Assembly: GCA_963579905.1 (NCBI GenBank)
Contig: CAUZIZ010000003.1
Coordinates: 3,249 to 67,248, forward strand
Direction of reading: 5' to 3'
Length of the DNA stretch: 64,000 bases
DNA from: Acidobacteria bacterium UBA6911
GTDB lineage: Bacteria; Acidobacteriota; UBA6911; RPQK01; JAJDTT01
Shown piece after piece: positions 9,541-60,719 of the stretch. Numbering within the stretch: the first letter of the stretch is position 1; each line of letters begins with the position of its first letter. A program made the translations under genes and the position numbers. A model generated the notes under the pieces. That model had not been told where the DNA came from and ran no database searches. It worked only from the letters and a program-made list of their open reading frames with translations.

Positions 9541-9543
9541 ACG

Positions 9544-12565: not shown

Positions 12566-12577
12566 GTCAGTAGCTGC

Positions 12578-37838: not shown

Positions 37839-37896
37839 AGATTTAGGATCTGGTGGGCGAGAGCTCGTGGGGGTTCGAGTCCCCCCTTTCGCACCA
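37839..37896 (+). repeat. 58-bp direct repeat of the 3' half of tRNA-Leu(TAG) (attR-like), 56/58 identical to 31465..31522.
   Basis: agatttaggatctggtgggCgagagcTcgtgggggttcgagtcccccctttcgcacca differs from the tRNA by 2 positions. The similarity continues ~10 bp past the tRNA end. Confidence 0.8.
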
Positions 37897-39744: not shown

Positions 39745-40646
39745 ATGGTGTCCATCCTGGCCACCATCGCCACCTACTGGATCCAGGCACTTCGCTGGCA
39801 GTGCTACCTGCGCCCGGTAGGTCGCGGCCCCTTGGCCTCCTCCTTCAACATCCTGGTCATCGGAAACCTGGTGTCGACCGTTCTTCCGGGCCGGTTGGGG
39901 GACATCGTTGCGCGGGCCTTACTGATGCGCCGCTGGGAAGGGATCCTTGCGGTAAAGACTTCAGCAACGATCGAGGTGGAACGGTTATTTGACGTGCTGA
40001 TGCTGATCGGCTGCTTAGCGGTCTATTTCTACTTCTTTCAAGAAGCCGACTCCTCGGCTGACTTCTCGGCAGCCTCCAGCACTGGAATCTTATTGTTCTT
40101 AGCAGGTGCCCTTGCCACCGTTTTTCTGGTCGTTCTGCGCTTCCAGCACCGAGCCGTTCTAGGCTTGCTGGAGCGATCACTGCAGCCGTTTCCCGGGCGC
40201 CTCCGGCACGCGCTAAAGGAGAGGGAACATGCCTTTGCCGCTGGCCTGGAGCTGTTCAGTGATCTCCACAACACGGCGCTGTCGATCTTTTCTACTCGTT
40301 CGCGCCCTGGTTGGCGCATGCGGTCGCTCTCTGGGGTGTGATCAAAGCAATGGAAATTTCCTCCTTTCGGCCCTCGGATACTCTGCTCATGGTCGGACTG
40401 GGGAGCGTCGGCATGGCCATTCCGACACCAGGGGACATCGGCTCACTCCACTACGCGCTATTCTGGGGCCTGGAGAGAATCAGCGACTCGCCCGACGACA
40501 GCCTGCGGGCCGCCGCGATTCTGTCCTGGGCAATCGGGGTCCTCCCGGTGACCCTTCTGGGATTTCTGGCACTGGCGAGGCGGGGCCTGCAGTTCATGGA
40601 ACTGGTCACCATTGCCAAGCCGGAACGAGAGGATGGGGCGGGATAA
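39745..40646 (+). pseudogene. UPF0104 / lysylphosphatidylglycerol-synthase-TM-region-like (flippase-like) membrane protein with a -1 frameshift in a T4 run (40288..40291).
   Basis: ORF 39745..40341 ends ...SIFSTRSRPGW*. The overlapping frame (ORF 40311..40646) reads ...VDLFYSFAPWLAHAVALWGVIKAMEI...PTPGDIGSLHYALFWGL. Adding one T gives a continuous SIFFYSFAPWLAHAV. Confidence 0.6.
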
Positions 40647-40761
40647 GTCGGGAAGGCACTCGATCCTCTGGAGGCTCTCCTTTCCGGGGTTCTGAAGGAA
40701 TATTCTGGTAGGAATTTGAGTCACAAATTTCAGTTCAGTCCCGCCCCCAGGAAGCCCTGGC

Positions 40762-40981
40762 CTCACTCGAGAAGGAAACTTCCCGCTATTGGGAAGATTG
40801 TGCGTCACTGCGTGGGAAAGAGTTGTCCGGCTCTCTCCTCGGAACCTGGTCTCATGTTGCTAACGGCTCAAGTCGTTCGCGGCTCTGTCGGACTTGCCTT
40901 CGTCACGCTGGTACTTCACCCGTTGGCGGCACCTTCGGAGGGCAGGAGACGTGTGACGTATTCTTGGAGTTTCAAGCTTAG
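40762..40981 (+). repeat. Copy B of the ~220-bp repeat family.
   Basis: It aligns end to end with copy A (12578..12806), with several single-base indels. It lies between the UPF0104 gene and nqrA. Confidence 0.7.
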
Positions 40982-41110: not shown

Positions 41111-42463
41111 GTGAAGCGATTCAAGATACGTAGAGGACTCAAGCTTCCGATCAGCGGCGAACCTGATCAGCGCATATCCCAGGGGAGAAGCGCCAAAACG
41201 GTCGCTCTCCTGGGTCGTGATTATGTCGGAATGAGACCCACCATGCTGGTTAAGGCTGGCGACAAGGTGACATTGGGTCAGCCTCTCGTTGAAGACAAGA
41301 GGAACCCTGGCGTCATCTTCACCTCTCCAGCTGCCGGACGGGTCGCCTCGGTCAACAGGGGCGAGAAGCGAGCCTTCCTCTCCATCATCATCAGTCGGGA
41401 AGGCCATGCTGCCGCCCAATTCGAGCGGGTCTCGTCCAACCAGCTCGAATCAGCGGGAGCTGACAAGATTCGACAGGTCCTGGTGGACTCGGGGATGTGG
41501 CCGGCTTTCCGCTCGCGGCCCTTCAGCAATGTGCCGGCCATCGACGCGAGCACCAATTCTATTTTTGTCAGTGCGCTGGACACCAATCCGCTGTCGGCAG
41601 ATCCTGCTCTTGTAATCGGCGCACATCAGGAGGCTTTCCAGAACGGGCTCCGAGCCCTTACCCTCCTGGCGTCTTCGAAGGTCATCGTCTCTCGTGCGCC
41701 GGGCTCGGAAGTGGTCATTCCAGATCACCCGAAAATTGACGGCTTTGAATTCCAGGGACCCCATCCAGCTGGTCTGGTGGGAACTCACATCCACTTCATC
41801 GATCCGGTGGGAGAGAGGAAGACGGTCTGGCACGTCGGCTATCAGGATGTCATCGCGATTGGAAAACTGCTCACTACCGGCACACTTTGGACCGAGCGCG
41901 TAGTTTCTCTCGCAGGACCCATGGTCCGGGAGCCGCGCCTGATCCGGGCGCAGCTTGGCGAGTGTCTGGGAGATCTAGTCGAAGGCGCGCTGAAAGAGGG
42001 TGAGAGCCGCCTGGTCTCCGGCTCAGTCTTCGCGGGCGATCTGGCTGGTGTATCTCCGCTGAATTACCTGGGTCGCTACCATACTCAGATTTCGGTGATT
42101 CGAGAGGATCGTTCGCGAGTCCTGCTCGGCTGGCAGGGGCCGGGTTTTGACACCTTTTCGACAAAGAACGTGTTTCTGTCCAAATTGAGATTCGGCCGGG
42201 AATTCGACTTCTCGACAAACACCAATGGAAGCAGGCGCGCGATGGTACCCATTGGCATGTATGAGGGTGTGATGCCCTTGGATATCTTTCCCACCTATCT
42301 CTTGCGCGCCCTGGTTTCTGAAGATCTGGAAAGCTCGGTTTCTCTGGGGGCCCTCGAGTTGGACGAAGAGGATCTGGGCTTGTGTTCTTTTGTCTGCCCG
42401 GGAAAAACGGAATACGGCCCGCTGCTGCGACAGATGCTCACGAGGATTGCCAAGGAAGGGTAG
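41111..42463 (+). CDS. nqrA: Na+-translocating NADH:quinone oxidoreductase subunit A.
   Basis: N-terminus [18 protein letters not shown] and length are typical of NqrA. It is the first gene of a six-gene nqr cluster. Confidence 0.9.
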
Positions 42464-42470
42464 CGAAGGA

Positions 42471-43691
42471 ATGAAGCCTCTGCGGAATTTTCTCGATGGT
42501 CTGGAACCATCCTTCAAAGAGCGTGGGAAGCTGGAGAAGCTCTACCCTCTTTATGAGGCCCTGGACACCTTTCTCTACACACCCGGTGACGTGACTCCAG
42601 AGGCTCCCCATATCCGTGATGGCATAGACCTCAAGCGGATGATGATCACGGTCGTCGCTGCCTTGGTACCCTGCATCCTGATGGCACTGTTCAATACCGG
42701 CTATCAGGCCAACCTGGCTCTGCAGGAAATGGGACTCACAGAGACTATCGGTTGGCGGGCGGCGCTCATTGCCTGGTTGGGCGTTGGTTACGACCCGCAG
42801 AACTTGATTGCCGACGCAGTGCATGGAGCGCTTTACTTCGTCCCCGTGTTCCTGGTAGCCAACATCGTCGGCGGTCTAGCGGAAGGGACCTTCTCGATTA
42901 TCCGAAAACACGAGATCAATGAGGGTTTCATGGTAACCGGGATGCTATTCCCCCTGATCCTGCCCCCGACCGTGCCTCTGTGGCAGGTTGCCCTGGGAAT
43001 TCTCTTCGGCGTCGTGGTGGGAAAGGAAGTTTTCGGGGGCACAGGCAAGAATTTTCTCAATCCGGCCCTGACGGCCCGAGCCTTTCTCTATTTTGCCTAT
43101 CCGGCCCAGTTATCGGGCAACGCAATCTGGACAGCCGTCGATGGTTTCAGCGGTGCCTCGGTCCTTGGCCTGGCGGCATCCGATGGAATGGCCGCCGTCC
43201 AGCAGCAGTACACGTGGATGGATTCGTTCCTCGGCACCATCCAGGGATCGATGGGAGAGACCTCGACCGTCGCCTGCCTGCTTGGTGCCGGCCTATTGAT
43301 TCTCACCGGCGTTGGCTCCTGGAGAATCATGCTGAGCTGCTCCGCCGGCGCTCTGGCGACCTCCTGGATGCTGTACTCGATTGGCAGCGATACCAACCCC
43401 ATGTTTGAGATGTCGCCGGCCTGGCATTTCGTGGTCGGAGGGCTCGCTTTCGGGATCGTGTTCATGGCAACGGATCCCGTTTCAGCAGCCTTTACAAATA
43501 TCGGTAAATATTTCTATGGGATCTTGATCGGTTTCATGGCGATTCTGATCCGGGTAATCAACCCAGCGTTTCCAGAGGGGACCATGCTTGCCATTCTCTT
43601 CGGTAATGTCTTCGCACCACTGATCGATTACTACGTGGTGAAGGCCAATATTCGGCGGCGGGCAACCAGAACCCAGGTGAATTATGTCTAA
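42471..43691 (+). CDS. nqrB: Na+-NQR subunit B.
   Basis: [13 protein letters not shown]...[15 protein letters not shown]...IDLKRMM is NqrB-like. ORF 42390.. is trimmed to ATG 42471. The stop TAA overlaps the nqrC start. Confidence 0.9.
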
Positions 43692-44451
43692 CGACACGGT
43701 CTCGAAGACATTTCTGGTGGCATTCCTGCTCTGCGTCGTCTGTGCGGTGGTCGTGTCCACCTCAGCGGTCAAGCTTCGGCCAGTGCAGCAGATCAACCAG
43801 GCCCTGGACAAGAAGAGCAATATCCTCTCGGCAGCGGGCCTACTAGAAGAAGGAGTGGATGTGGACCGGGTCTACCGGGACTCTATCGAGTCAAGAATCG
43901 TCGACCTCGACACCGGTGAGTACGCGGCCGGGGTGGATGCGGAGACCTTCGATCAGCGGAAAGCGGCCAGGGACCCAGCTCGCAGTATCGAAATAGACGA
44001 GGACCTTGCGGGTATCGGAAGGCGGTCACGCCAGGCTTCCGTGTACCTGGTCAAGAACGGCGACAAAGCAGGTCGCCTGATCCTGCCCGTTCACGGGAAG
44101 GGACTCTGGTCGACCTTGTACGGTTTCCTCGCACTCGACATGGACATGAACACGATTGAAGCCCTGAGCTTCTACCAACATGCCGAGACCCCGGGTCTTG
44201 GAGGGGAAGTGGATAACCCCAAGTGGAAGGCCCTTTGGAAGGGAAAAAAGGCCTACGGTGAAGATGGACAGGCGCGAATCGAGGTGATCAAGGGCAAAGT
44301 CGATGGATCAGCAGCTAGCGCCATCCACCAAGTGGATGGCCTTTCCGGCGCGACCATTACCTCACGTGGAGTGCGCAACCTGCTCCGCTACTGGTTGAGT
44401 GAGAACGGCTTCGGGAGGTATCTCGCACGAGTGCGACGAGAGGGAGTTTAA
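43684..44451 (+). CDS. nqrC: Na+-NQR subunit C (FMN-binding).
   Basis: Single N-terminal TM segment and the FMN-attachment region ...[13 protein letters not shown]. Confidence 0.85.
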
Positions 44452-44457
44452 CGCACA

Positions 44458-45084
44458 ATGGCAAGTCAAATTCGCAAAGTCCTCTTCGGACCGCTGTTCG
44501 AGCAGAACCCCATCGCTCTACAAGTACTGGGCATTTGTTCCGCCCTGGCAGTCACTACCAAGATGGAGACCGTGATGGTGATGTGCCTTGCGGTCATCGG
44601 CGTACTCGCCTGTTCCAATTCGGCAGTGAGTCTGATTCGCAATCACATCCCTTCGAGTATTCGAATTATTGTACAGATGACCATCATTGCCTCACTTGTG
44701 ATCGTTGCCGATCAGATCCTAAGGGCCTATGCCTATGAAATAAGCAAGCAGCTCTCCGTGTTCGTCGGCCTTATCATCACAAACTGTATCGTGATGGGCC
44801 GTGCCGAGGCCTTCGCCATGAAGAACGGTGTCTTCAACAGCTTTCTCGACGGTGTCGGCAATGGCCTGGGCTACAGCTTGATTCTGGTAGTTGTCGGACT
44901 ACTGCGTGAGTTTTTCGGCTCTGGCGCCCTCTTCGGCCAGGTCCTGCTTCCCTTGACCACGGACGGCGGCTGGTACAACGCCAACGGGTTGATGCTGCTT
45001 CCGCCCAGTGCGTTTTTCATCATAGGAATATTCATCTGGGTTCTGCGTTCGGTGAAGACCGAGCAGGTGGAGCACGAAGGATAG
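44458..45084 (+). CDS. nqrD: Na+-NQR subunit D.
   Basis: [26 protein letters not shown]... is the NqrD/RnfE family signature. Position in the operon fits. Confidence 0.85.
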
Positions 45085-45088
45085 AACG

Positions 45089-45700
45089 GTGTTCGAAGAA
45101 TACTTGAGCCTCTTTTTGAAAGCGGTCTTCGTCGAGAACATGGCGTTGGCCTTTTTCCTGGGCATGTGCACTTTTTTGGCAGTCTCCAAGAACGTGGAAA
45201 CCGCTAGCGGGCTGGGGCTCGCGGTAATCGTGGTCCAAACCATCACGATACCCATCAACAATCTCCTCTATCGCAACGTCCTCAGCGAGGGAGCGCTGAC
45301 CTGGGCGGGGCTGCCCGAGACCAACCTCTCATTCCTTGGACTGATCACCTACATCGGAGTGATCGCCGCGATGGTTCAGATCCTGGAGATGGCCTTGGAC
45401 CGTTTCGTACCATCGCTCTACAACGCCCTGGGGATTTTCCTTCCTTTGATCACGGTCAACTGCGCGATACTCGGAGGCTCCTTGTTCATGGTGGAGCGCG
45501 AATACGATTTCGGCGAAAGCGTCGTTTACGGTTTCGGATCGGGTTTCGGCTGGGCCCTGGCCATCATGGTACTGGCGGGCATTCGCGAGAAACTCAAGTA
45601 CAGCGACGTCCCCGAGGGGCTGAAGGGCCTGGGGATTACCTTCATCATCGTCGGCCTGATTTCGCTGGCGTTCATGTCCTTTTCGGGAATCCAGCTATAG
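45089..45700 (+). CDS. nqrE: Na+-NQR subunit E.
   Basis: [32 protein letters not shown] is the canonical NqrE N-terminus. Confidence 0.85.
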
Positions 45701-45706
45701 CCTGAC

Positions 45707-46921
45707 ATGGAAATCTTTCTCGGTGTTTCGATGTTTACGATTATCGTCCTGGCCCTGGTGACGGTAATCCTATTCGCCCGATCCAAGTTGGTTGCCTCGG
45801 GGAATGTCGACATCCTCATCAATGGGGAACGCAATATTTCCGTACCTACTGGCGGAAAGCTTCTCAATATCCTCGCAGACCAGAAGATCTTCGTTTCCTC
45901 AGCCTGCGGTGGTGGCGGAACCTGTGCCCAGTGCAAAGTGAATATTTTCGAAGGTGGCGGCGACATTTTGGCCACGGAAAAGGCTCATATCAGCCGCGGT
46001 GAAGCGAAAGAGGGCTGCCGCCTCTCCTGCCAGGTGGTGGTCAAGCAAAATCTGAAAATCGAGGTGCCGGAGGATGTCTTCGGGGTCAGGAAGTGGACCT
46101 GCAAGGTTCGATCCAATCACAACGTGGCGACCTTCATCAAAGAGCTGATCCTGGACCTGCCCGAAGGGGAAAACGTCGATTTTCGCGCGGGCGGCTTCAT
46201 CCAGATTGAGTGCCCACCCCACACAGTGCGCTACCGAGACTTCGATATCGAAAAAGAATATCGGGATGCCTGGGATGCCTTCAATCTCTGGGATCTTGAA
46301 TCGGTCGTGGAGGAAACAGAGTACCGTGCCTATTCGATGGCCAACTTTCCCGAAGAAAAGGGCATGATCATGCTCAACGTGCGGGTGGCCGTTCCACCAC
46401 CCCGCACCAACTTTCCCCCAGGAAAGATGACCTCCTACATGTTCAATCTTAAGCCGGGAGACGAGGTCACCATCTCGGGCCCGTATGGCGAGTTTTTCGC
46501 CAAAGAGACGCAGGCGGAAATGATCTTCATTGGCGGCGGCGCCGGGATGGCACCGATGCGATCCCACCTCTACGATCAGTTCCGACGAGTTCACACCGAT
46601 CGCAAGGTCAGCTTCTGGTACGGTGCCCGCAGCTTACGCGAGGCCTTCTACTGGGATGAATACGATAAGCTGCAAGCGGAGAATCCGAACTTTGGCTGGC
46701 ACCTGGCGCTCTCGGAACCCCAGGGAGAGGACAACTGGGCCGGCTATACCGGTTTCATCCATCAAGTCCTCTATGACAACTATCTCAGGGACCACGAGGC
46801 CCCGGAGGACTGCGAGTACTACATCTGTGGACCTCCAATGATGAACCAGGCGGTGTTCAAGCTACTCGATGATCTGGGTGTCGAACCCGAGAACATCGCC
46901 TACGACGATTTCGGCGGCTAG
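45707..46921 (+). CDS. nqrF: Na+-NQR subunit F (2Fe-2S ferredoxin + FAD/NADH-binding).
   Basis: N-terminal TM segment. 2Fe-2S cysteines [20 protein letters not shown]-binding C-terminal domain. Confidence 0.9.
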
Positions 46922-46927
46922 TCCCTC

Positions 46928-47953
46928 GTGTTGAAGCCTCTACTTGGTCTCCTGGCGATGCTGGGGGCCGCCCTTCTTGTTCTCTTCTGGAAGCCCACCT
47001 ACGAAGCGCTGCACATCGGCAACACGATGGGGACGACCTATAGGGTCAAATGGCTGAGCAACCAAGGGACGGAGGGCACCCAAGAGATTCGTGCTGGCAT
47101 TGACGACCAGCTCGAGGACATCAATCGCAGGATGTCCACCTATCTGCCCGACTCCGAGCTTTCGCGGTTCAATCGCTCATCCGATAGTGATTGGTTCGCA
47201 GTCTCCGTGCCAACGGCAGAGGTGGTCAAGGAGGCGCTCCGGATCGCTGATCTTACCCAGGGGGCCTTCGACCCAACCATCGGACCTTTAGTCGATCTCT
47301 GGGGCTTTGGTTCTGGCGAGGACCGGATCGAACCTCCTTCGGATCAGGAGATAGCTGCCACGATCAGCCGGATTGGATTCGAGCGGCTGGAGCTAAGAGG
47401 CGACGCCCCGGCTCTGCGAAAACAGGCCGCGGATCTGGAAATTGACCTGTCGGCGATCGCCAAGGGCTATGCGGTAGATCGGGTCGCCGGCTTCCTGGCA
47501 GGCCATGAAGTCGAGAATTTCATGGTCGAGGTAGGCGGAGAGGTTCGGGCACAGGGTCAAAGCCTCGCCGATAGGCCTTGGAGAGTCGCCGTAGAACGGC
47601 CACATATTGACAAACCAGTCGCTCACCGAGTGCTTCCACTATCCGACCTGGCGATGGCGACCTCGGGTACTTATCGCAACTACTTCGATGCCGGAGGGCG
47701 GCGCTACTCTCACACCATCGATCCAGCCAGCGGATGGCCGATCGACCATCACACCATCTCGGTCAGCGTGGTCCATCCCTCTTGTATGACAGCAGATGCC
47801 CTCGCGACAGCCCTACTGGTCCTGGGAGCTGATAGAGGCCTTCGGCTTGCCGAGAAAAACGGCTGGACAGTTCTTTTCATCCGCGAGAAAAACGATAGAA
47901 TAGAAGAGATTAAGACGTCGCAATTTCGCGGCCGCTTTGGCAAACAGCCATGA
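46928..47953 (+). CDS. apbE: FAD:protein FMN transferase ApbE.
   Basis: ApbE family, immediately downstream of nqrF as in other nqr loci. The stop overlaps the next ORF. Confidence 0.8.
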   Translation: MLKPLLGLLAMLGAALLVLFWKPTYEALHIGNTMGTTYRVKWLSNQGTEGTQEIRAGIDDQLEDINRRMSTYLPDSELSRFNRSSDSDWFAVSVPTAEVVKEALRIADLTQGAFDPTIGPLVDLWGFGSGEDRIEPPSDQEIAATISRIGFERLELRGDAPALRKQAADLEIDLSAIAKGYAVDRVAGFLAGHEVENFMVEVGGEVRAQGQSLADRPWRVAVERPHIDKPVAHRVLPLSDLAMATSGTYRNYFDAGGRRYSHTIDPASGWPIDHHTISVSVVHPSCMTADALATALLVLGADRGLRLAEKNGWTVLFIREKNDRIEEIKTSQFRGRFGKQP

Positions 47954-49380: not shown

Positions 49381-50913
49381 ATGAGTCTTTTCGACAGCTC
49401 CGGCGGCGGACTCGCACCCATCGACTGGATCATCGTCGCTTTGTATGCCCTTGGTACCATCCTCCTGGGCGGCTACTACTCCCGTCGTCAGATTAGCCTG
49501 GAGGAATACTTTACGGGCGGCGGCAGGATGAATCCGACGCTAATAGGGGTCTCCCTGATGGCCACTTCCTTGAGCAGCATCGGCTACCTTTCCATTCCAG
49601 GAGAAGCCATTTCCAAGGGTCCAGCGGGACTGGCAAATATGCTGGCCCATCCTTTTATCTTCGTGGTGGTTGGCTTCATCTTCATCCCTTTCTTCATGAG
49701 GACCCGGGTCATCAGTGCCTACGAGCTCCTGGAAGAGCGGCTGGGTCTGGGAATCCGGATGCTAGGGGCCGTGCTGTTCCTCCTCTTCCGGTTGGTGTGG
49801 ATGTCGTTGCTGGTCTTTCTGGCCGCCCAGGCCCTGGCCATCATGATGGGCCTGGACGAGTCGTGGGTACCTTGGATCACTCTCATCACCGGATTGATTG
49901 CTGTCACCTACACCTCGTTGGGTGGACTGCGAGCCGTCGTCGTCACGGACGGCTTCCAGACCCTGTTCATGTTGGTAGGAGCGCTTCTGGTGATTGGCCT
50001 TGTGACCTATCGGATGGGTGGGATCGGTTGGTTTCCGACCACCTGGCCGCCCCACTGGGATGAGCAGCCCCTGTACAGTTTCGACCCTTCCGTTCGTCTG
50101 AGCATCCTGGGCACCATTTTCTCCACCTTCATCCTGACCTGCTGCGGCCTGGCAGGTGATCAGACCAAGATCCAACGTCTGATGGCGACCACTGACGCCA
50201 GGGCTGCGCGGCGAGCCTATGCGACCAACCAGATCGTAGGGATCGCAGTGGTGCTGACACTCTGGCTGGTGGGATTCGCGCTTCTGGGGCTGGTTCAGAA
50301 CAACCCCGAACCTCTCCCCGCTGGACTCGATACCGGAGCCAACGGCGACAAGGTCTTCCCCTACTTCATCTCCTATCTGTTGCCGCCGGGCATCTCCGGG
50401 CTGGTAGTGGCAGCCCTGCTGGCGGCCGCCATGTCCAGCATCGACTCAGGGGTAAACTCCATCACGGCGGTAATCGATCGGGACTTTCTGCACCGCTTCG
50501 GGAAACTCCCATCCGACCCCAAGATCCAGGCACGTTGGGCTAAGATCCTGGCCTTCGTTATCGGGGCTGTGATCGTCTTGGGAAGCGCCTTCATGGGGGG
50601 CGTTTCCGGCAACATCTGGGCGATCACCAAGAAAACCTCAGGCTTGCTAATGACCCCCATGTTCGGTCTCTTCTTCTTCGCCTTTTTCGTGCCCTTTGCC
50701 CGGCCCCTGGGCGTCGCGGCGGGTGCCATCTGCGGCCTGACTACAGCGGTGCTCCTCGCCTACTCTGGCGCTATCTTCGGGAGGGACCCGATCAGTGGAG
50801 CCGATCCGGTGAGCTTCATGTGGATTGCTCCGGGTGCTCTGGTCGTGAACCTGACTGTCGGAACCGTAATCAGCTACGGCCTGCACGTCTTTCGGGGAAG
50901 GGTTAGCAGTTAG
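49381..50913 (+). CDS. Sodium:solute symporter (SSS) family transporter.
   Basis: 510 aa with ~13 TM segments. YFTGGGRMNPTLIGVSLMATSLSSIGYLSIPGEA. Confidence 0.85.
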   Translation: MSLFDSSGGGLAPIDWIIVALYALGTILLGGYYSRRQISLEEYFTGGGRMNPTLIGVSLMATSLSSIGYLSIPGEAISKGPAGLANMLAHPFIFVVVGFIFIPFFMRTRVISAYELLEERLGLGIRMLGAVLFLLFRLVWMSLLVFLAAQALAIMMGLDESWVPWITLITGLIAVTYTSLGGLRAVVVTDGFQTLFMLVGALLVIGLVTYRMGGIGWFPTTWPPHWDEQPLYSFDPSVRLSILGTIFSTFILTCCGLAGDQTKIQRLMATTDARAARRAYATNQIVGIAVVLTLWLVGFALLGLVQNNPEPLPAGLDTGANGDKVFPYFISYLLPPGISGLVVAALLAAAMSSIDSGVNSITAVIDRDFLHRFGKLPSDPKIQARWAKILAFVIGAVIVLGSAFMGGVSGNIWAITKKTSGLLMTPMFGLFFFAFFVPFARPLGVAAGAICGLTTAVLLAYSGAIFGRDPISGADPVSFMWIAPGALVVNLTVGTVISYGLHVFRGRVSS

Positions 50914-50938
50914 CAGTTAGCAGTTAGCAGCGAATACT

Positions 50939-51445
50939 ATGTCCGCTGAACTATTTAGACATCGTACTGCTCCAGAATTGGCCGACATGCCTGCTCGCCA
51001 TATTCGTTACCGAATGGTTGCCGTCACCACCTTGATGTCGGTTCTGCTCTACCTCGATCGCTTCTGCATTTCCTTTGCCGAGGTTTTCATCAAGGAAGAC
51101 CTGGGCCTAACGGATACCCAGGTGGGCTGGATGTTGAGCGCCTTCTTCTGGACCTATGCCCTGGGCCAGGTTCCCTGCGGATGGTTGGCGGATCGGTTCG
51201 GCGCCCGAGTGATGCTAACAATCTACATTCTCCTCTGGTCCCTGTTCACGGGGCTGACAGGGGCAGCCGGCGTTTTCAGCGCCCTTCTGGCAATGAGATT
51301 CGGATTTGGATTAGGCCAGGCAGGAGCATATCCAACAAGCGCCAATCTGGTTAGCAAATGGATTCCCTTCTCGGGTCGCGGGTCGGCGAGGGGATCAACC
51401 GCAACTGGAATCTCGCCTTTCTCACCTGTGCTGCCGCGTTCCTGA
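50939..51445 (+). pseudogene. N-terminal ~150-aa fragment of an MFS transporter (ACS/anion:cation symporter-like).
   Basis: LYLDRFCISFAEVFIKEDLGLTDTQVGWMLSAFFWTYALGQVPCGWLADRFGAR...RFGFGLGQAGAYPTSANLVSKW is an MFS N-terminal half (TM1-4). The ORF stops and nothing MFS-like follows. Confidence 0.6.
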
Positions 51446-51776
51446 TTGCGGGAATCGCGGCGCTCGGGATGAATGCGTCCGTCCCGATAGTCCCTGAAGA
51501 CGAAAGCGAAATCCGCCCAGCTTGAGCATCAGCATATCCCTCGCCCACAAAATTCATAGATTTTCGTAGCGAGGCGGTGACAGCGCCGTCCTGGCAAGGC
51601 TTGCGACCGAGACCACACGTGGCGAACCTCCGCAGTCGCACCCGTTCAGTACCTCGAGGAGGGCGACCGAGCGCAACGCAGCCAGGGGGGATGATGGCGC
51701 CGCCGCAGTAGAACACTTGTGGATTATGCGGGCTAAAGTCCCGTCGGGTTGAGGTCGAAGAAGTCCATGAGAACTC

Positions 51777-52549
51777 ATGCAGCAACAGGGCCTCCAGAAT
51801 TTCTCTCCTCCTCCCGCCAGTGGCTTGGAGAGCTTCCGAAGCGCCGTCTGGTCCCGTCTGAATGACGAGACACTCGAACTGCCCCTGTTACCAGCCGTAG
51901 CGGGCCGGGTTCTGTCTCTAGCCCGCAGTCAAGACACTCGTGCAGCCGAGCTAGCCCGGGTAATCCATTCCGCCCAGTCCCTGGTCAGCATGTGCTGAAG
52001 GTTGCGAACTCCGCGGCCTATGGTTGGAACGCACAGATAGTTTCCCTGCAGCAAGCCGTAGCTCGATTGGGATTCGAGCGGATCGCCGAGATTGCATTAG
52101 CAGTTGCGGTTGGCGGTCGCCTCTTTGCACTTGACCGGAGGAAGGCCGAACTCCAGAAACTCTGGAGCCATTCGGTGGCGGCGGCCTTCTGTGCCCAGGA
52201 GGCCGCCTGCCTACTGAGACGCAATACTGAAACAGCGTTCTTGTGCGGGATGCTCCACGATATTGCTAAGCCGGTCGTCCTAGAGGTCGTACAAACCGTG
52301 GAGAAATCTCTAGGTTCAGAGCTCGAATCCGAGGCCGCCGTTCTCCTCATGGAGGAGTTCGGGGGCAGAGTGGGTGCCCAGTTGGCCCGGGAGTGGGGAT
52401 TGCCCGACCAGGTGCAGGAAGCGATTGCCTGCCGGTACTGCTATGAAAAGGCCTCCCACTATCCCGATGAGGCGAAGACGACCTGCCTTGCCGACTTGCT
52501 CTCGGATCATATGCTGAATGAGGCCCCTGACGAGGATGTGTGGACCTGA
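51777..52549 (+). pseudogene. HDOD-domain signalling protein with a frameshift near 51993..51997.
   Basis: ORF 51777..51998 ends ...ELARVIHSAQSLVSMC*. The HDOD consensus continues in the next frame (ORF 51992..52549) as LKVANSAAYGWNAQIVSLQQAVARLGFERI...GMLHDIAKPV. Confidence 0.6.
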
Positions 52550-52625
52550 ATCTCTATCCAGACGATGTGGACTCCTTGCTTTCCAAGAAGGAGTCGGTTC
52601 TGGAAGCCGTCGAATCGATGAAGCT

Positions 52626-54119
52626 ATGAAGTCCTCAGACCACTACGACATTCTGGTCATCGGGAGCGGGCCGGCCGGTCAGAAGGCTGCAGTTCAAGGA
52701 GCCAAGGCGGGCAAGCGTGTGGCGGTGGTCGAGCGGGACCGAAACGTCCGCGGTTCCTATGTCCATACCGGTACGATACCCCAGCAAGACCCTCAGAGAG
52801 AATGCGCTGCAGCTGGACCGATATCAGCGCAGCAGCACAATCTTGGAGTGCAAGCTCAGAGAGGATCTCAGGGTGGACCACCTGATCGGGCGGATGCATC
52901 AAGTCGTCGAGTCCCATGTGAGCTTCATGAGTAGTCACCTTGAACGAAACCACATCCAGCGCCATCTGGGCCGGGCACGCTTCGTCTCGGAAGCAGCCGT
53001 GGAGGTGATGTCTCCCAACGGATCGACCCAACGCATTGGCGCCGACGTCTTTGTAATCGCCACAGGATCCAGGCCGCGTATCCCCCGCCCGAGATTTCAG
53101 TCGACCACCAATACATCCTGGACAGCGATTCCATACTGTCCATGAACTACCTTCCCGATTCGCTGACGGTCCTCGGCGGCGGCATCATTGCGTGCGCATA
53201 TTCCTCGATCTTCCAGCTCCTGGGAGTTCGAGTCACGGTCATCGACCGCTCGAAGCGCCCCCTTCACTTCTTGGACCCTGAAATGACGGAGGAGTTTCTG
53301 AAAGGCTTTCGAGGGAGTGGTGGTCGCTTCTTGAGCGATCGCCGAATCAGCGAGGTAGGTTGGGACGGGGTCTCGAAAGTGAATGTCGAGTTAGTTGATG
53401 GAGACAAGATCGAGAGCGAGAAGATGTTGGTCGCCATAGGACGACAGGCCAACCTGGACGGACTCGGTGTAGAGAGTGCCGGTCTCGAGGTGGATCGTTG
53501 CTGCAAAACGTCCGTTCCCCCTATCTACGCCGTTGGAGACGCTGCCGCCCCCCCGGACTGGCGTCCTCGGCGATGGAGCAGGGTCGGCGTGCTGTCCTTC
53601 ATGCCCTTGGGTTGGGGAAGGACAGCAACGACGAGGCGATCCCAATGGGCATCTACACGATCCCCGAGATGGCCGCTGTGGGGATCACAGAGCAGCAGGC
53701 AGCCGATCGTTTCGGCGGCGCCCTGGTTGGTCGGGCACGATTCTCTGAGGTGGCACGCGGACAGATCTCAGGTCTGACGGTGGGCTTTCTGAAGCTAGTA
53801 GCCGACCCCCGGGAAACGGTTGCTCGGCGTCCACATTGTGGGCGAGGGCGCAACCGAGCTGATCCACCTGGGTCAAATAGGGCTCCTCGATGGCGGCGGG
53901 GTAGATTTCTTCGCGGACAACATATTCAATTTCCCCACGCTTGCCGCGGCCTATCGAGTGGCCGCTCTGGACGTAGTCAACAAGCGCTCCATTCGGGCCC
54001 AGATCGCGCGCGATTCCTCAGCTGAAACTTCAAGAATACGTCGCACGTCTCTAGTCCCCGGACGGCGCGTCGAACGGGCCCTGTTTGCCGACAGCATCAA
54101 CCTACTTCCGCAAGACTAG
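52626..54119 (+). pseudogene. SthA/Lpd-like pyridine-nucleotide-disulfide oxidoreductase (soluble transhydrogenase-like) broken by 4 frameshifts.
   Basis: It is colinear with E. coli SthA across five overlapping ORFs. Frame 1 gives [19 protein letters not shown]...VERDRNV. Frame 2 gives [15 protein letters not shown]...FVIATGSRP. Frame 3 gives ISVDHQYILDSDSILSMNYLPDSLTVLGGGIIACAYSS...PPIYAVGDAAA. Frame 4 gives LASSAMEQGRRAVLHAL...IPMGIYTIPEMAAVG. The last frame gives LLGVHIVGEGATELIHLGQ...FNFPTLAAAYRVAALD. The shifts are at C4 52779..52782, the c-tract 53082..53090, C7 53548..53554 and near 53806..53818. Confidence 0.75.
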
Positions 54120-54154
54120 AACTAGACTCCCCAGACTCTTGTCACGACCTGAGG

Positions 54155-54326
54155 ATGAACTACCAGTACGACAAAGCCAAGTCCGTCAGAGCCGCGAACG
54201 ACTTGAGCCGTTAGCAGCATGAGGCCAAGTTCCGAGGAGAGAGCTGGACAACTCTTCCCCACGTAGTGCCGCACGATATCGCCTATCCTCAACCGAAGTT
54301 TCGTTCTCGAATGGGGCAGCACAGCT
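54155..54326 (-). repeat. Copy C of the ~220-bp repeat family (inverted orientation, 3'-truncated).
   Basis: The reverse complement aligns with copies A and B over ~170 bp. It lies 36 bp after the sthA-like pseudogene. Confidence 0.7.
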
Positions 54327-54368
54327 GGGGGGCGAGACTGATCTGGGACTTCTCACGGCCGGCTCTGA

Positions 54369-57131
54369 TTGACAGCATTCGGTGTCGCTGCTAACTTACA
54401 TTTCCAAGCTATGGATTGCCGAGTCTTCCTAGCAGCCTGCGCCGTGATGGTGCCAACTTTCGCTCCCTCGTTCGGCTCTGACGCTGCAACAGCAGAGTTC
54501 TTCGAAATGCGGGTCCGTCCGCTCCTAGCCGACAACTGCTACGCCTGCCACACCAGTGCAAAAAAGGGGGGCCTTCAAGCAGATTCAGACGAAGGTCTGC
54601 GGCGGGGTGGCAACTCGGGACCCGCTGTCCTTCCCGGGAATTCAGCGGGGAGTCTGCTGATCCAAGCCGTTTCCCAGACTCACGCGCGGCTGAGTATGCC
54701 TCCTCAGGGCAAACTTTCCGCCAACCAGATCGGATATCTGAAAGCCTGGATTGATGCCGGTGCCGTCTGGCCAGAGACCGAGGAGAACCTTCTGCACGCC
54801 GCCGAGACCGCTAGTCACGTCGTCCCACCCGAGCAACGTGCTTTCTGGTCTTTCCAGCCTGTTCTGGAGCCCTCGCTGCCAATCGTAAGAGACCGTAGTT
54901 GGTCCAAAGCCCCGGTCGATCATTTCATTCTGGCGAAGCTCGAACAAGGGGGCCTCGAGCCAGTACCTGCGGCGGGTAAGAGGACTCTTATCCGACGAGC
55001 CAGCTTTGATCTTATCGGTCTGCCTCCCTCTCCCGAAGAGGTGGAGGCTTTTCTCGCCGATGATGACTCACAGGAAGCCTTTGGCAGGGTAGTCGACCGC
55101 CTCCTTTCTTCGCCCCACTACGGAGAACGATGGGGACGTTATTGGCTGGACCTCTCCCGCTATTCAGATGGCCGGATTGGAGCAAGAGAAGATACACCCT
55201 ATGCCAACATACACCGCTATCGGGACTGGGTCGTCCAGGCCTTCAACCAGGATTTGCCATACGATCGCTTCATAAAGGCTCAGTTGGCGGCGGACCTGCT
55301 GCCATCCGAAGGGCGAGATGAGCTGCTTGCCGGTCTCGGTTTTCTGGTGCTCGCTCCCAATCAGGACGATCTGGTCGACGTCACGGCAAGGAGTTTCTTG
55401 GCTCTAACCGTAGGTTGTGCCCGGTGTCACGATCACAAGTACGATCCCATACCCACCCAGGACTTCTATTCCCTGAAGGGCGTCTTCGCCAGCAGCGAGG
55501 TTTGGGACCATCCGCTGGTCGAGGAGCAGGTCGTCGAGATCTACAAGAAGGCCGAGGAGAAGGTCTCAGATCAGAAGGATTTGATCCAGAAATTCATCGA
55601 GTTTCAGTCGAAACAATTAGCCGACATTCTGCTGGAACAGACCTCTTCCTATCTGGTCGCTGCCTGGAAGGTGAGTCGTGCACAACAGGCCTCCGCCCAG
55701 GCTGCTGCCGTGGAAGCACAACTCGACTCGGAGGTGGTAAACCGTTGGATCAAGTACCTGGACCAGACAGAGAAGGAACATCCCTATCTGGAAGACTGGG
55801 AAACGATGTTGGCCCGAGGAGGGACCCTTCAAGAAGCCCGAGATCTAGCGGATCAATTTCAAGAGATCGTCCTCACGATAAACCTTGAAAAAAAGGAGCT
55901 GGAGGATCGGAACTACGTCAAGCTGGGAGGTGCCAAAGGGGCCTCCGACATGGGGACCCGCCAGTATGCCAATCTTGAGTTTCTCGACCTCCAGAAGTGG
56001 TATCTGTGGAGAGATCTGGCAGCGGAGCCACATCCCAGGGGAAGCTTCAGGTTCGAGGGTGGAGTGGCGTACTACGGCTCCGAGGAGGGTCTGGAGATCA
56101 ACCGCTTTCTGACCGGCGAATGGAAAAGGCACCTGGACCGAATGCGGGAGGAGCTGAAGCGGCTGGAAGAGGCATTGCCTGAACCCTATCCTTTTCTGCA
56201 CGGCTACCGGGATTTGGAGAAGCCCAAGGATCTCCGCATCGCCATCCGCGGCGACGAAGACAACCTTGGCAAAGTAGCCCCCAGACGATTTCTACACGTC
56301 CTCAGCGCAGGAGTCCCCGCGGCCTTCGGCCAGGGCAGTGGACGTCTGGAATTGGCCCAGGCCATCGCCAGCCCGGAGAATCCGTTGACGGCTCGGGTGA
56401 TGGTCAACCGCGTCTGGCAGCATCACTTCGGAGAGGGAATCGTCCGCACTCCCAGCAATCTGGGCCGGCTGGGGGCGAGGGCGAGCCATCCCGAACTGTT
56501 AGATTATCTGGCGGCACGATTCATTCAGAGCGGCTGGTCGATCAAGGCCCTTCACCGAGAGATCATGCTTTCCGCTACCTACGCTCTGAGTTCGCAACAC
56601 CGCCAGGAGAACGCCGAGAAGGATCCGGACAACCGTCTTCTGTGGCGGGCGAACCTGATCCAGCGGCTCGACGCCGAGGCCTTACGCGACACCATTCTTT
56701 CGGTTTCAGGAAAGCTGGATCGCTCCCTGGGAGGTCCGTCAGCGCCCCTGGACATCGACCATCGCCGCCGCACCCTTTACACCGTCGTGAGTCGCACCAA
56801 ACCCAACCCGACCCTGACGATGTTTGATTTCCCCGACCCCAACAGTCACAGCGCCAGCCGAAGCATCACGGTGGGTCCTATGCAGAGGCTTTATTTCCTC
56901 AACAGCAATTTCGTGATGGACCAGGCAGCAGCGTTGGCTGAACGTCTAAAGAGGGAAGCCCCAGGCGGCCCCCGGCCACAAATCCAGCACGCCTACGCCC
57001 TGCTCTACGGCCGCACGCCCACAGCCGACGAGGTCCAGCTGGGACTGGACTATCTGGGGGACGGAGAAGAAGCCTGGCCCACGTATGCGCAGGTGCTCCT
57101 CGCCTCCAGTGAGTTCAGCTCGGTGCCGTGA
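54369..57131 (+). CDS. PSCyt1 (c-type cytochrome, CxxCH) / DUF1549 / DUF1553 protein.
   Basis: Heme motif NCYACHTSAKKGGL. DUF1549 block LSSPHYGERWGRYWLDLSRYSDG. CARCHDHKYDP. C-terminal DUF1553. A likely signal peptide from ATG 54411 (MDCRVFLAACAVMVPTFA). Confidence 0.85.
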   Translation: MTAFGVAANLHFQAMDCRVFLAACAVMVPTFAPSFGSDAATAEFFEMRVRPLLADNCYACHTSAKKGGLQADSDEGLRRGGNSGPAVLPGNSAGSLLIQAVSQTHARLSMPPQGKLSANQIGYLKAWIDAGAVWPETEENLLHAAETASHVVPPEQRAFWSFQPVLEPSLPIVRDRSWSKAPVDHFILAKLEQGGLEPVPAAGKRTLIRRASFDLIGLPPSPEEVEAFLADDDSQEAFGRVVDRLLSSPHYGERWGRYWLDLSRYSDGRIGAREDTPYANIHRYRDWVVQAFNQDLPYDRFIKAQLAADLLPSEGRDELLAGLGFLVLAPNQDDLVDVTARSFLALTVGCARCHDHKYDPIPTQDFYSLKGVFASSEVWDHPLVEEQVVEIYKKAEEKVSDQKDLIQKFIEFQSKQLADILLEQTSSYLVAAWKVSRAQQASAQAAAVEAQLDSEVVNRWIKYLDQTEKEHPYLEDWETMLARGGTLQEARDLADQFQEIVLTINLEKKELEDRNYVKLGGAKGASDMGTRQYANLEFLDLQKWYLWRDLAAEPHPRGSFRFEGGVAYYGSEEGLEINRFLTGEWKRHLDRMREELKRLEEALPEPYPFLHGYRDLEKPKDLRIAIRGDEDNLGKVAPRRFLHVLSAGVPAAFGQGSGRLELAQAIASPENPLTARVMVNRVWQHHFGEGIVRTPSNLGRLGARASHPELLDYLAARFIQSGWSIKALHREIMLSATYALSSQHRQENAEKDPDNRLLWRANLIQRLDAEALRDTILSVSGKLDRSLGGPSAPLDIDHRRRTLYTVVSRTKPNPTLTMFDFPDPNSHSASRSITVGPMQRLYFLNSNFVMDQAAALAERLKREAPGGPRPQIQHAYALLYGRTPTADEVQLGLDYLGDGEEAWPTYAQVLLASSEFSSVP

Positions 57132-57677: not shown

Positions 57678-59051
57678 ATGAATCGACGTGAACTTCTGTC
57701 TCTCGTTGGCGCTGGCTTTGGCTCAGTTGGACTCTCGAGTCTTCTGGCGGCAACCTCTCGCAGCTCGTCCCTCGCCGTGCGGGCTCCCCATTTTCCTGCC
57801 CGCGCCAAGCACGTGATCTTTCTTTTTCTTAACGGCGGCCTTTCCCAGGTAGATACGTTCGACCCCAAACCGATGCTCGACCGGCACGACGGCGATCCGC
57901 TGCCCGGCCCCAAGATCAAGACCGATCGGGCTTCGGGGAACTTGATGAAGTCGCCGTTCCGGTTTCGCCAGTGCGGCCAGAGTGGTCTCCACGTTTCAGA
58001 GATCTTCCCTCGGGTCGGCGAAGCGATCGATGATTTCTGTGTCATCCGCTCCATGCACTCGGATAATGGGAATCACGAGCCCTCGCTTCTGCTGATGAGC
58101 TGTGGGCATCAGCTTCCGGGACACCCTTCCATGGGCTCCTGGGTTACCTACGGACTGGGATCGGAAAACGAGAATCTTCCGGGTTTCGTGGTGCTTTGTC
58201 CCGGCAGCCCGACCGTTGGGCCTCCCCTTTGGTCTTCGGGTTTCCTACCCAATTCCTTTCAGGGAGCACACATCCGCAACAACGAGACGGAAACGGAAAA
58301 GCTGGTTCAGAACATTCGCAACGCGACTCTCGGTCCAGACGATCAGAAAAGACAGCTGAGCTTGCTCGATCGCTTGAACCGCTCCTATCTGGGGCGGCTG
58401 GGACAGCAGCCGGCTCTGGAGTCGAGCATCGAGGCAATGGAAATCGCCTTCCGGATGCAGACGGAAGCTCCCCGCGTTTTCGACATTACCAAGGAGAAAG
58501 AATCCGTCCGATCCCGCTACGGTGAACACGACTTTGGTCGCGGTTGCCTAATGGCGTTGCGGCTGGTGGAACACGGGGTACGCATGGTGCAGGTTTTCTA
58601 TGGGGATTTTCAACCTTGGGACAGCCACGACGACATCATGGACCACGGCCGGCTGGCTCGCCGAGCCGACGGACCCATTGCTTGTCTTGTCGAGGACTTG
58701 AAGTTGAGAGGCCTGTTCGACGAGACGCTGATCATTGTGGGCAGTGAGTTCGGTCGCACGCCGATGATCCAGAACAGTGGCTTGGAGAAGATCGGAAGGG
58801 GCCGTGATCACAACGTCCACGGTTACACCACGCTATTGGCGGGTGGAGGGGTCAAGGGCGGACTGGCCTATGGTGCGACCGATGACTTCGGCTTCAAGGC
58901 CACCGAGAATCCGGTCCACCCCAACGATCTGCACGCCACCATCTTGCACCTTCTCGGCCTCGACCACAAGCGCCTTACCTACCGCCACAGTGGTCGAGAC
59001 TTTCGGCTGACCGACGTGGGCGGCAAGGTCCTTCGGGAGATCTTGTCCTAG
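57678..59051 (+). CDS. DUF1501 (sulfatase-like) protein with a TAT signal.
   Basis: MNRRELLSLVGAGFGSVGLSSLLAA is a twin-arginine signal. DUF1501 blocks (FLNGGLSQVDTFDPKP, SEFGRTP). It pairs with the upstream DUF1549/DUF1553 gene as is usual in PVC genomes. Confidence 0.85.
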   Translation: MNRRELLSLVGAGFGSVGLSSLLAATSRSSSLAVRAPHFPARAKHVIFLFLNGGLSQVDTFDPKPMLDRHDGDPLPGPKIKTDRASGNLMKSPFRFRQCGQSGLHVSEIFPRVGEAIDDFCVIRSMHSDNGNHEPSLLLMSCGHQLPGHPSMGSWVTYGLGSENENLPGFVVLCPGSPTVGPPLWSSGFLPNSFQGAHIRNNETETEKLVQNIRNATLGPDDQKRQLSLLDRLNRSYLGRLGQQPALESSIEAMEIAFRMQTEAPRVFDITKEKESVRSRYGEHDFGRGCLMALRLVEHGVRMVQVFYGDFQPWDSHDDIMDHGRLARRADGPIACLVEDLKLRGLFDETLIIVGSEFGRTPMIQNSGLEKIGRGRDHNVHGYTTLLAGGGVKGGLAYGATDDFGFKATENPVHPNDLHATILHLLGLDHKRLTYRHSGRDFRLTDVGGKVLREILS

Positions 59052-59535
59052 CTGGCTCCATTCTGATGCCCTTTGCGCGCGGGCGAGGCGTCGAGTAGAA
59101 GGGCCGCACAAGTCAGCAGCACCGTGCTGCCGGACCAAAACCAGTAGCCGTCACCCCAGGCGCTCAGGTCCAGGCGTGAGAACCCGTCGCCCAGCAAGAC
59201 GCTGAAGGCCATGATCGAAGCAGTCCCGCCAAGACACGCCGCCAGCGGCCAACGACGCTTCGCCACGACGATGACCGCAAGCCAGTAGACACCATTTACC
59301 AGCCAGCCCACAGCCAAGGAGCCCTGAGGCAGAGGAATACTCCGTAAGTGAACGCCAGAAAACCGGACTCTCCAAAGCGCCCGGTGCCAACTGGGAGAGC
59401 GAACGTAACCAGGTAGAGTGCGCCGCTCGACCAGAACATCGGCTTCGCCACCGAAAAAGTGTCGAGTCTCTGCTTCGTTTTCGAATAGGGTTTGGATACC
59501 AGTGTAAACATTTTTCCTCCATTCCTTCGACCCAA
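59048..59535 (-). pseudogene. Small multi-TM membrane protein, possibly frameshifted. Function unknown.
   Basis: Two overlapping hydrophobic ORFs (59296..59535 and 59048..59317) in different frames would make one ~160-aa membrane protein. Confidence 0.3.
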
Positions 59536-60107
59536 TCGAGGGTCACTCAGAGTGTTTTCAGATACTCAATTCATGCCCTGCGGTTTTCGTCGGTCTTGAT
59601 CCGCGACCAGACAGCATGACCTTGATTTCCGTGGCCGGCTCTGTCGGCATTGAACCAGTTCCGATCATCTCGGAACTTTCGAAGAAGTTCCGCCTCACCC
59701 AAATGGATGAACTGCGTCGGGTAGAGCTGCTGTCCCACTCGCTCGGGGTCGAACCGCCGTGCCGCCACCACACTGAATATCTTCGGTCGCTCTGCTTCGG
59801 ACCCCAATAGATGGTAGAGGATGGGAACACTGCCATTGTGGAGATACGGAAAGTTGACCCAGACCCCTGTGAGGGGCGGCGCGGCATAGCCTTCACTCTT
59901 CTGAAGATCACCGTGATCGGCGATCGGGCTCTCCTGGGTGCGGTTTCGGAACTGGCCCACTGCAATCCCTTCCTGCCGGAGCGCATCGATCTGGAGCGAT
60001 CGGTACTCGGTCCGGAGTTTCTAGAGAGCGAGCCGGTCTGGAGCATGCAGGTCGATGATCCGAAGAAGCCGCGGGCGAACTCATGGAGGGTTCACGAGCA
60101 CGTCGAA

Positions 60108-60719
60108 TCATTGGTCGACCTGCTGCGCCAGGGCCTGTTGAAGGGGGTGCCCATCGGCCATCAGCTTGATGTCGGGCCCCACCACGTCACGCACCTCAGC
60201 CGCGGCGGCGAGATCTTGAGCCATCGGATTGCCGCCGATCCTCATCTTGAGGGCAAGCAAACCGCGGTCGACAAATTCGAGAGCCTCTTCCGGGTAGTGG
60301 TCCACGGGGTCGAGTCCTTCGGTATAGTTCAATGACGAACCGTAGGCGGGGACCTTTTCCCATAAGCGTCCACCGTAGAGTTCTGCGATGGGAAGGTTCA
60401 GAGCCTTGCCCCGCAGGTCGTCCAGGGCGATATAGATCGCTCCGACAGCCCAGCCATCTCCAAAATTATGCCCCCAGAGTTGCTGCCAGATTTCCCTGTT
60501 CCGGAGTGGATCCCGCCCAATCAGCAGGGGCCCGAGCTGCTCTTCGATCAGAGCCCGAACTCCCGCCCGTGCACCGGTCTTGCCCCAACCAACGATCCCC
60601 TCGTCGGTACTGATCTTTACCAATACCACTTCCCTGAAGGGGTACAGAAGAGTGGAGGGCCCCATCGCCTTCGGCAGCCTATGTTTGAGGAAGTAGGTTT
60701 CTACGGCTGTGATCTTCAT
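60108..60719 (-). pseudogene. Enolase-superfamily (mandelate racemase/muconate lactonizing enzyme) N-terminal portion. The C-terminal barrel is missing.
   Basis: MR/MLE N-terminal domain MKITAVETYFLKHRLPKAMGPSTLLYPFREVVLVKISTDEGIVGWG. Start of the barrel LKMRIGG...DIKLMADGH. It ends with two stops within 10 codons. No downstream frame continues the family. Confidence 0.55.

Follow-up and report, generated by a model that had tools for sequence, protein, structure and literature searches.

A probable inherited pseudogene of the soluble transhydrogenase gene sthA, decaying together with its HDOD neighbour in an Acidobacteriota genome

A 64,000-nucleotide (nt) stretch of DNA from Acidobacteria bacterium UBA6911 (assembly GCA_963579905.1, contig CAUZIZ010000003.1, positions 3,249 to 67,248 of the forward strand), called the window here, carries at 52626-54020 on the plus strand a damaged copy of sthA, the gene for the soluble, FAD-dependent, Si-specific NAD(P)+ transhydrogenase. 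This segment of 1395 nt is very probably a genuine inherited pseudogene, as it shows disabling lesions relative to syntenic intact orthologs and these lesions are reproduced across assemblies under separate accessions. A first look at the letters alone (the sequence-only reading) had proposed that an SthA-like gene could be rebuilt colinearly from five frame segments, and three-frame translation of 52560-54180 bore this out. The protein begins at ATG 52626 and is spread over frames 0, 1, 0, 2 and 0, with switches from 0 to 1 at C4 (52779-82), from 1 to 0 at C5GC3 (53082-90), from 0 to 2 at C7 (53548-54) and from 2 to 0 at C5G3A3 (53806-16). A single open reading frame (ORF) of about 465-475 codons, as expected of SthA, was not found; the frame-0 reading ends at a stop at 52932. 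The last frame-0 segment runs on to a TAG at 54117-19 because the original stop codon has been lost (TGA in the orthologs, TCA at 54018-54020 in the window), and the 33 codons of this read-through tail (54021-54119), which falls within a copy of a dispersed repeat, are meaningless. Gene callers in public assemblies have split the relic into ORFs of 142, 211 and 99 amino acids (aa), which annotators should regard as fragments of one dead gene.

The frame-corrected protein scored 495.9 bits against the NCBIfam profile NF003585 (Si-specific NAD(P)+ transhydrogenase; cut-off 465), with an alignment spanning protein residues 2-455 and profile positions 2-461 of 464. Its score against the lipoamide dehydrogenase (Lpd) profile TIGR01350 was 304.9 bits, below the cut-off of 408.8. 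The gene is therefore an SthA gene and not an Lpd gene, and of the two affinities named at first, SthA and Lpd, only that with SthA was upheld. The score above the NF003585 cut-off demonstrates descent from the SthA family, but says nothing of function. Lpd and the other flavoprotein disulfide reductases belong to the same fold family as the window gene and its SthA orthologs, and their domains follow in the same order (Pyr_redox_2, Pyr_redox, Pyr_redox_dim). However, Lpd has a redox-active CXXXXC, whereas the orthologs carry CXXXXT (CVHTGT), and the Lpd identity was rejected on this ground as well. An intact ortholog of the relic, P0001, matches E. coli SthA/UdhA (EC 1.6.1.1) over its whole length at 42% identity. 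Both proteins have the GSGPxG FAD motif, CXXXXT at the same positions (Cys45/Thr50), GTIPSK, the NAD(P) motif GxGxxx followed by CEYASIF, and a C-terminal PT(M/L)AEAYRVAAL, and they differ in that F replaces the Y of the YXXXXE motif in the subfamily to which the window gene belongs. The best match of the ortholog in the PDB was 9n4y, a soluble transhydrogenase (E = 1.2e-97, residues 6-461, compared by sequence only), against 1e-67 for Lpd. The window copy keeps the FAD-binding GXGXXG at its N-terminus (VIGSGPAGQ), but it departs from E. coli SthA by four frameshifts, an 8-aa deletion, the missing stop codon and the replacements C45Y, G42R, E190A and E441A.

Four intact orthologs of 472 aa (P0001-P0004), 85-86% identical in amino acid sequence to the relic, were found by protein search. 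Beyond these four comes the broad SthA family at 56-62% identity or lower, with named members from Nitrospirales and Acidobacteriota, and no intact allele more than 86% identical was found among 5.8 billion cluster representatives. A search of GTDB representative genomes, a set that does not include the window's own genome, yielded only three relatives with the intact gene. The closest sequenced relatives of this uncultured lineage, these three included, are recorded as 'MAG: Acidobacteriota bacterium' (MAG, metagenome-assembled genome). The loci of the close orthologs lie on long contigs of assemblies with this name and have a gene order in common with the window: an MFS transporter, an HDOD-HD protein, sthA, a PSCyt1/PSCyt2/PSD1 protein and DUF1501. 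Within the 64-kb window there is no second SthA/Lpd-like sequence. The comparison with orthologs in related genomes, which had been suggested together with the first description of the relic, both confirmed and corrected the list of lesions.

The lesions were called from a MAFFT base-level alignment of window positions 51700-54200 with the four intact orthologs. The break points of all four frameshifts lie in or next to short C/G runs where the sequence-only reading had placed them, although sign or size had been wrong for two of the four indels. The first is one extra C at 52779-52782 (ortholog CCC or CCG, window CCCC), exactly as described before. The second, in the C-rich tract 53082-53090, had been taken for one missing C; the alignment gives instead a net insertion of 2 nt (ATCCCC--GCCGAG in the orthologs, ATCCCCCGCCCGAG in the window), which has the same effect on the frame and the opposite sign. 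At the third site (53546-53554, gap at 53546|47) one base has indeed been lost (GCCGG[GC]CCTCCC to GCC-GCCCCCCC). It was not lost within C7, as had been thought, since the alignment puts the loss in the GG(G) that directly precedes the C tract, and the C7 run itself arose from a T-to-C change. The fourth lesion (53806-53816, gap at 53813|14) was correctly located and is a deletion of 2 nt (CCCCCAGGG[AT]AAAC to CCCCCGGG--AAAC).

As an account of the damage to sthA the four frameshifts are correct but incomplete, for three further lesions in sthA had been missed, among them a 24-nt deletion and the stop loss, and so had two frameshifts in the overlapping HDOD gene upstream. The in-frame deletion (53481-53493, junction at 53492|53493) removed 8 residues of the LEANSRGV type. 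In the orthologs this segment is flanked by 11-nt direct repeats, GGTCT[CT]GA[GA]GT, of which one copy is left in the window, and the junction sequence GGTCTCGAGGTGGATCGTTGCTGC had no exact match in JGI metagenome contigs. These changes account for the length of the relic, as 1419 nt in the intact orthologs, minus 24, plus 1, plus 2, minus 1 and minus 2, gives the 1395 nt of 52626-54020. All four small indels fall in C/G runs, while runs of at least 3 (with 1 nt on either side) cover only about 17% of the orthologs' sthA (p ~1e-3). Given this and the 24-nt deletion between direct repeats, 'slippage-type' is a fair label for the mechanism. Compared with the same ortholog locus (L001), the 2.3 kb of the HDOD gene and sthA have 59 gap columns, against 0 in the adjoining 2.8-kb PSCyt/PSD1 gene. 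The 'striking local concentration' of lesions noticed at first is thus real relative to this neighbour, but less singular than it seemed, because sthA is one of many degraded genes nearby.

The absence of the redox cysteine was confirmed as well. The N-terminus reads as had been noted, and the family's Cys45 is a Tyr. In the degraded CXXXXT region (52749-52760) codon 42 is CGC (G42R) and codon 45 is TAT in place of the TGT of the orthologs (C45Y), so that the window reads R42-G-S-Y45-V-H-T-G-T50 where close orthologs have GGSCVHTGT; Thr50 is kept. Other family motifs have suffered likewise. In the NAD(P)-binding domain, E190A (GAA to GCA, 53196-53198) removes the invariant Glu of the conserved CEYASIF, and in place of GGG(V/I)I(A/G)(C/S)EYASIF the window has GGGIIACAYSSIF, which includes the adjoining A192S (53202-04; Ala in 117 of 120 homologs). 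H298P (CAC or CAT to CCT, 53520-53522) lies in VPHIYAVGD, at a position that is His in 117 of the 120. E441A (GAG to GCG, 53946-53948) turns the C-terminal FPTLAE, the equivalent of YXXXXE in soluble transhydrogenases (STHs), into FPTLAA, and the (Y/F)XXXXE motif is lost with its Glu. Gly42, Cys45, Glu190 and Glu441 are invariant in all 120 aligned homologs, and all four are replaced in the window. This alignment has 153 columns conserved at 97% or more; the relic deviates at 10 of them (G42R, C45Y, E190A, E441A, H298P, A192S, M418I, a deleted Gly and two shift sites), compared with a median of 1 for the homologs, one of which has 9. All of these conserved-column changes are singletons on the window's terminal branch.

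Two motifs define the STHs: CXXXXT (Cys45/Thr50 in E. coli) and, at the C-terminus, YXXXXE, which replaces the His-Glu pair of the disulfide reductases (PMC9460512). It may be asked whether the lineage first evolved a functional Cys-less (YXXXXT) SthA that decayed only later, in line with the earlier suggestion that the protein may have been non-canonical before decay. An STH without Cys45 is possible in principle: Streptomyces avermitilis has a natural SXXXXT enzyme, and E. coli C45A, although uncoupled and reduced about tenfold in transhydrogenation, keeps about 10% activity (PMC9460512). The Streptomyces enzyme, the sole precedent for a functional STH without Cys45, is like the relic in lacking the Cys and retaining the Thr. 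However, it is intact and active, whereas the Cys-to-Tyr change of the window comes together with frameshifts and other invariant losses, and the closest relatives keep the Cys. Cys45 is present in 120 of 120 homologs, syntenic orthologs included, C45Y took one transition (TGT to TAT), on the short branch on which Gly42, Glu190 and Glu441 were lost too, and no intact Tyr45 allele occurs in the databases searched. A bulky Tyr near the flavin, with G42R in the same loop, would also look like drift rather than adaptation. The suggestion of an earlier non-canonical state thus found no support, and we regard a Cys-less enzyme that preceded the decay as very unlikely.

A gene interrupted at C/G runs could also be intact in the cell and only appear broken through miscalled runs. 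The position of all four small indels in such runs would agree with this, and there is a likely example of such errors among the relatives. The lowest-coverage long-read relative (L008, ERZ25072076 ctg244921_5x_l, '5x') has its HDOD gene (9122-10004) and its PSCyt gene (11493-14215) each split in two, probably by assembly errors, while its sthA is intact; its SthA, P0004, has 7 deviations at conserved columns. These splits are a reminder that frameshifts in low-coverage long-read assemblies call for independent confirmation. For the window such confirmation was sought by exact protein look-up with the intact neighbouring DUF1501 protein and the 211- and 142-aa sthA fragments. A 100% identical sequence was found in ERZ27247711 k141_2078328 (93.8 kb), in ERZ27247690 k141_1222694 (62.8 kb) and in the NCBI MAG GCA_963578445.1. 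The DNA also turned up in Logan assemblies of single runs, of which SRR9039929 carries the same sthA fragments, and the exact frameshifted fragments occur on 7-8 contigs overall. Contig names beginning with 'k141_' follow the MEGAHIT convention, which points to short-read assemblies. A variant strain (L016, ERZ27247695 k141_223086) differs by 4 single-nucleotide polymorphisms (SNPs), 1 indel and the state of its MFS gene, yet shares every sthA lesion. Nor are deletions of 22 and 24 nt, indels of +2 and -2, a stop loss and missense changes at invariant residues the kind of error that homopolymer miscalling makes. The neighbouring genes are sound, with DUF1501 intact at 93% aa identity and the 2.8-kb PSCyt/PSD1 gene 84% identical to that of L001 with no gaps. 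With the sequence reproduced, the lesions not confined to homopolymers and the adjacent gene free of gaps, the possibility named at the outset, miscalled runs in an intact gene, did not hold, and a sequencing or assembly artefact is scarcely credible. Two features of these other assemblies may be added. The 4 SNPs of the variant strain are clustered at 51799-51961 and could be a small recombination tract. The Logan contig (L017, SRR9039929) has an 11-nt tandem duplication, AATACGTCGCA, after window position 54034, in the region of the read-through tail and repeat; other copies of the repeat have a single 11-nt unit, and the window state is therefore ancestral.

If the lesions are real, sthA might still be expressed, either with the frame restored at the C runs by programmed frameshifting or transcriptional slippage, or as fragments that function separately. 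Slippage can be favoured by runs of C, and the four shifts (+1, +2, -1, -2) sum to zero, so that the last segment is back in the starting frame. However, four different shifts would each need efficient correction, while the orthologs are unshifted at all four sites, and no shift site is conserved and no single shift of defined size and sign exists. Correction of the frame would leave the 8-aa deletion and the losses of invariant residues in place. The fragments of 142, 211 and 99 aa cut through the Rossmann domains, and the partner HDOD gene, described below, is broken too, with translational coupling destroyed. Continued expression from a split or frameshifted gene was rejected accordingly as extremely improbable. 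The relic would be expected to give no functional product: its frame 0 stops at 52932, neither Rossmann domain is left whole, and residues invariant in the family are missing.

Some points do weigh against the interpretation as an inherited pseudogene. The evidence consists of assemblies and not of reads, and the independence of the ENA assemblies is deduced from their separate accessions. On the terminal branch either a missense change or a frameshift may have been the first to inactivate the gene, which also leaves some room for the Cys-less enzyme considered above. Finally, the pairwise ratio of nonsynonymous to synonymous substitution rates (dN/dS) between the window and the orthologs is 0.135-0.168, barely above the 0.107-0.135 found among intact orthologs. 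With dN/dS only slightly raised, the signal of relaxed selection is modest and depends on few sites. On the window's terminal branch 35 nonsynonymous and 45 synonymous changes were counted (0.78), compared with 0.38-0.69 on the ortholog branches; these numbers, which are small, would be consistent with a recent inactivation. The deviations at conserved columns, 10 of 153 in the sthA relic and 4 of 27 in the HDOD remnant, were likewise taken as signs of relaxed selection. A rough age was estimated from dN/dS and the branch counts with omega set at about 0.13 before inactivation and about 1 after it. By this estimate some 13% of the terminal branch, about its last eighth, would have been neutral, and the inactivation would be recent compared with the 15% that separates the window from its orthologs. 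The decay appears to be still in progress in the population, because strains differ in a 1-nt lesion of the HDOD gene and in the MFS deletion but have every sthA lesion in common.

Under the inherited-pseudogene interpretation, the course of events was probably as follows. Selection on an HDOD-sthA operon would have been lost in this lineage, and both genes would then have drifted. Small indels (+1, +2, -1, -2) arose at short C/G runs, a context expected for replication slippage, and a 24-nt deletion between the 11-nt direct repeats. The stop codon was lost where a dispersed repeat now abuts the gene, and missense changes struck catalytic and cofactor-binding residues (G42R, C45Y, E190A, H298P, E441A).

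In related genomes sthA forms an operon with the HDOD gene, which comes first and whose stop codon overlaps the start codon of sthA (ATGA). The upstream partner in the window is itself a pseudogene (51777-52629, plus strand). It has lost 1 nt at 51988|51989 and 22 nt at 52538|52539, and its original TGA overlaps the ATG of sthA (ATGA, 52626-29). The 1-nt loss is absent from the variant strain L016. An alignment of 68 HDOD partners has 27 columns conserved at 90% or more, and at four of these the remnant carries a replacement (D66A, R145C, L159M and G164A). These partners come from a survey of 80 metagenomic loci with SthA at 45-57% identity, of which the 68 with at least 700 nt upstream were counted. 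An HDOD-homologous ORF ends at the sthA start in every one of the 68. The junction is a 4-nt NTGA overlap in 58 loci, a 1-nt overlap (TGATG) in 7 and a spacer of 2-4 nt in 3; the start codon nearest the HDOD stop was chosen, which favours overlaps, although in most loci the chosen start is also where the tblastn match to SthA begins. The pair was also found in Nitrospirales and in one distantly related MAG of Acidobacteriota. The subfamily with an HDOD gene upstream covers SthA proteins at 45-86% identity, with named genome records from Acidobacteriota and Nitrospirales. In one Nitrospirales lineage (L024 and L025, whose SthA proteins are the same) the genes that precede the pair are those for the NADPH-producing 6PGD (gnd) and G6PD (zwf). 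E. coli sthA, in contrast, stands alone between oxyR and fabR without an HDOD neighbour, whereas the window subfamily always has the overlapping HDOD gene upstream.

The relic might then be what remains of a two-gene module in which the soluble transhydrogenase depends on the HDOD protein as its obligate partner or regulator, with the window as a natural double loss; we consider the chances of this to be about even. Both partners would decay together because neither is useful alone. The joint decay of the two genes fits a functional unit, although the function of the pairing is putative. A search of the available literature library found no paper joining HDOD with transhydrogenase, sthA or udhA. 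As a pseudogene alone the sthA relic matters little: it is ordinary biology, a dead gene of a well-known enzyme family and of an already known kind. Only the conserved HDOD-sthA module merits further work. We found no earlier description of this pair, which would supply a defined metabolic partner, open to experimental test, for the poorly understood HDOD domain. The locus also documents clearly how an operon decays through slippage indels and deletions between direct repeats, at a stage that is still polymorphic in a natural population. The lesions being real, the lineage is therefore without an intact copy of this sthA, a loss that bears on its NADH/NADPH balance.

The cluster of lesions in sthA is part of a wider gene decay in this stretch, with net loss of DNA: 24 nt from sthA, 23 nt from the HDOD gene and about 1.29 kb from the MFS transporter gene. 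The latter survives as a remnant at 50939-51537 (plus strand), in which the interior (aa 157-571 of a 627-aa ortholog) has been deleted and the two ends are in different frames; the deletion is polymorphic, as L016 (1-568) keeps the interior. Downstream lie a frameshifted gene of 155 aa (59051-59511, minus), a RoxA-like cytochrome c of which no more than the last 145 aa are left (59550-59987, minus) and a sigma54 activator reduced to about its first 80 aa (59922-60164, plus). Pfam also revealed partial genes in other parts of the window: an MR_MLE gene cut in its C-domain (60108-60719, minus), an LPG_synthase_TM fragment (39745-40341, plus; profile positions 39-199 of 302) and the C-terminal third of an aminotransferase (9058-9540, plus). 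One 1.8-kb stretch (37312-39113) has only short ORFs without a Pfam match. Taken together, the remnants suggest that pseudogenisation is widespread in this genome. Pseudogenes of the ordinary bacterial kind, with a bias towards deletion, are found in Rickettsia and Mycobacterium leprae. They resemble those of the window in their small indels at short runs, direct-repeat deletions, net loss and decaying neighbours, and nothing different in kind was seen here.

Two unrelated repeat elements flank the HDOD-sthA pair. The downstream one, a copy of a dispersed intergenic repeat (54020-54345, plus strand), has a core of about 230 nt and an extra insert of 74 nt (54079-54152), and it starts exactly at the lost stop codon, where homology with the orthologs breaks off. 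Further copies were found at 12577-12803 (minus) and 40731-40974 (minus), with a partial one at 29460-29519 (minus). The copies are 80-85% identical to each other, and the repeat has 8-nt terminal inverted ends (GAAACTTC...GAAGTTTC). With the element present, the spacer between sthA and the PSCyt gene measures about 350 nt, compared with 65 nt in L001; the repeat was not seen in the loci of the relatives. The stop loss may be a side effect of the insertion or rearrangement of this repeat and not a separate point mutation. A Rfam search of 50500-55000 gave no match, which means that neither flanking repeat belongs to a known RNA family. The second element, about 185 nt long (51554-51738), separates the MFS remnant from the HDOD gene. 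In the relatives L001 and L002 it occurs at about 75% identity as an inverted pair, 14347-14517 (plus) and 14713-14881 (minus), around a 75-aa ORF downstream of PSCyt. The flanking repeats were also considered as the cause of inactivation. Only the downstream one touches sthA, at its stop codon; it may account for the stop loss, but the internal lesions would be left unexplained.

Further away, a 312-aa ORF at 34639-35577 (plus) contains the N-terminal zinc-finger domain of an IS91-type transposase (PF14319), with no full transposase domain called, and may be another mobile-element remnant. For the 6-27 kb part of the window, an exact protein look-up with ORF 16202-17248 gave no entry, probably because the gene had been called from another start. 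The window also has an intact operon for the Na+-translocating NADH:quinone reductase, nqrABCDEF followed by apbE (41111-47953, plus), and two sodium:solute symporter genes (31786-33420, minus; 49381-50913, plus), which hint that the energy economy of the lineage may be based on sodium.

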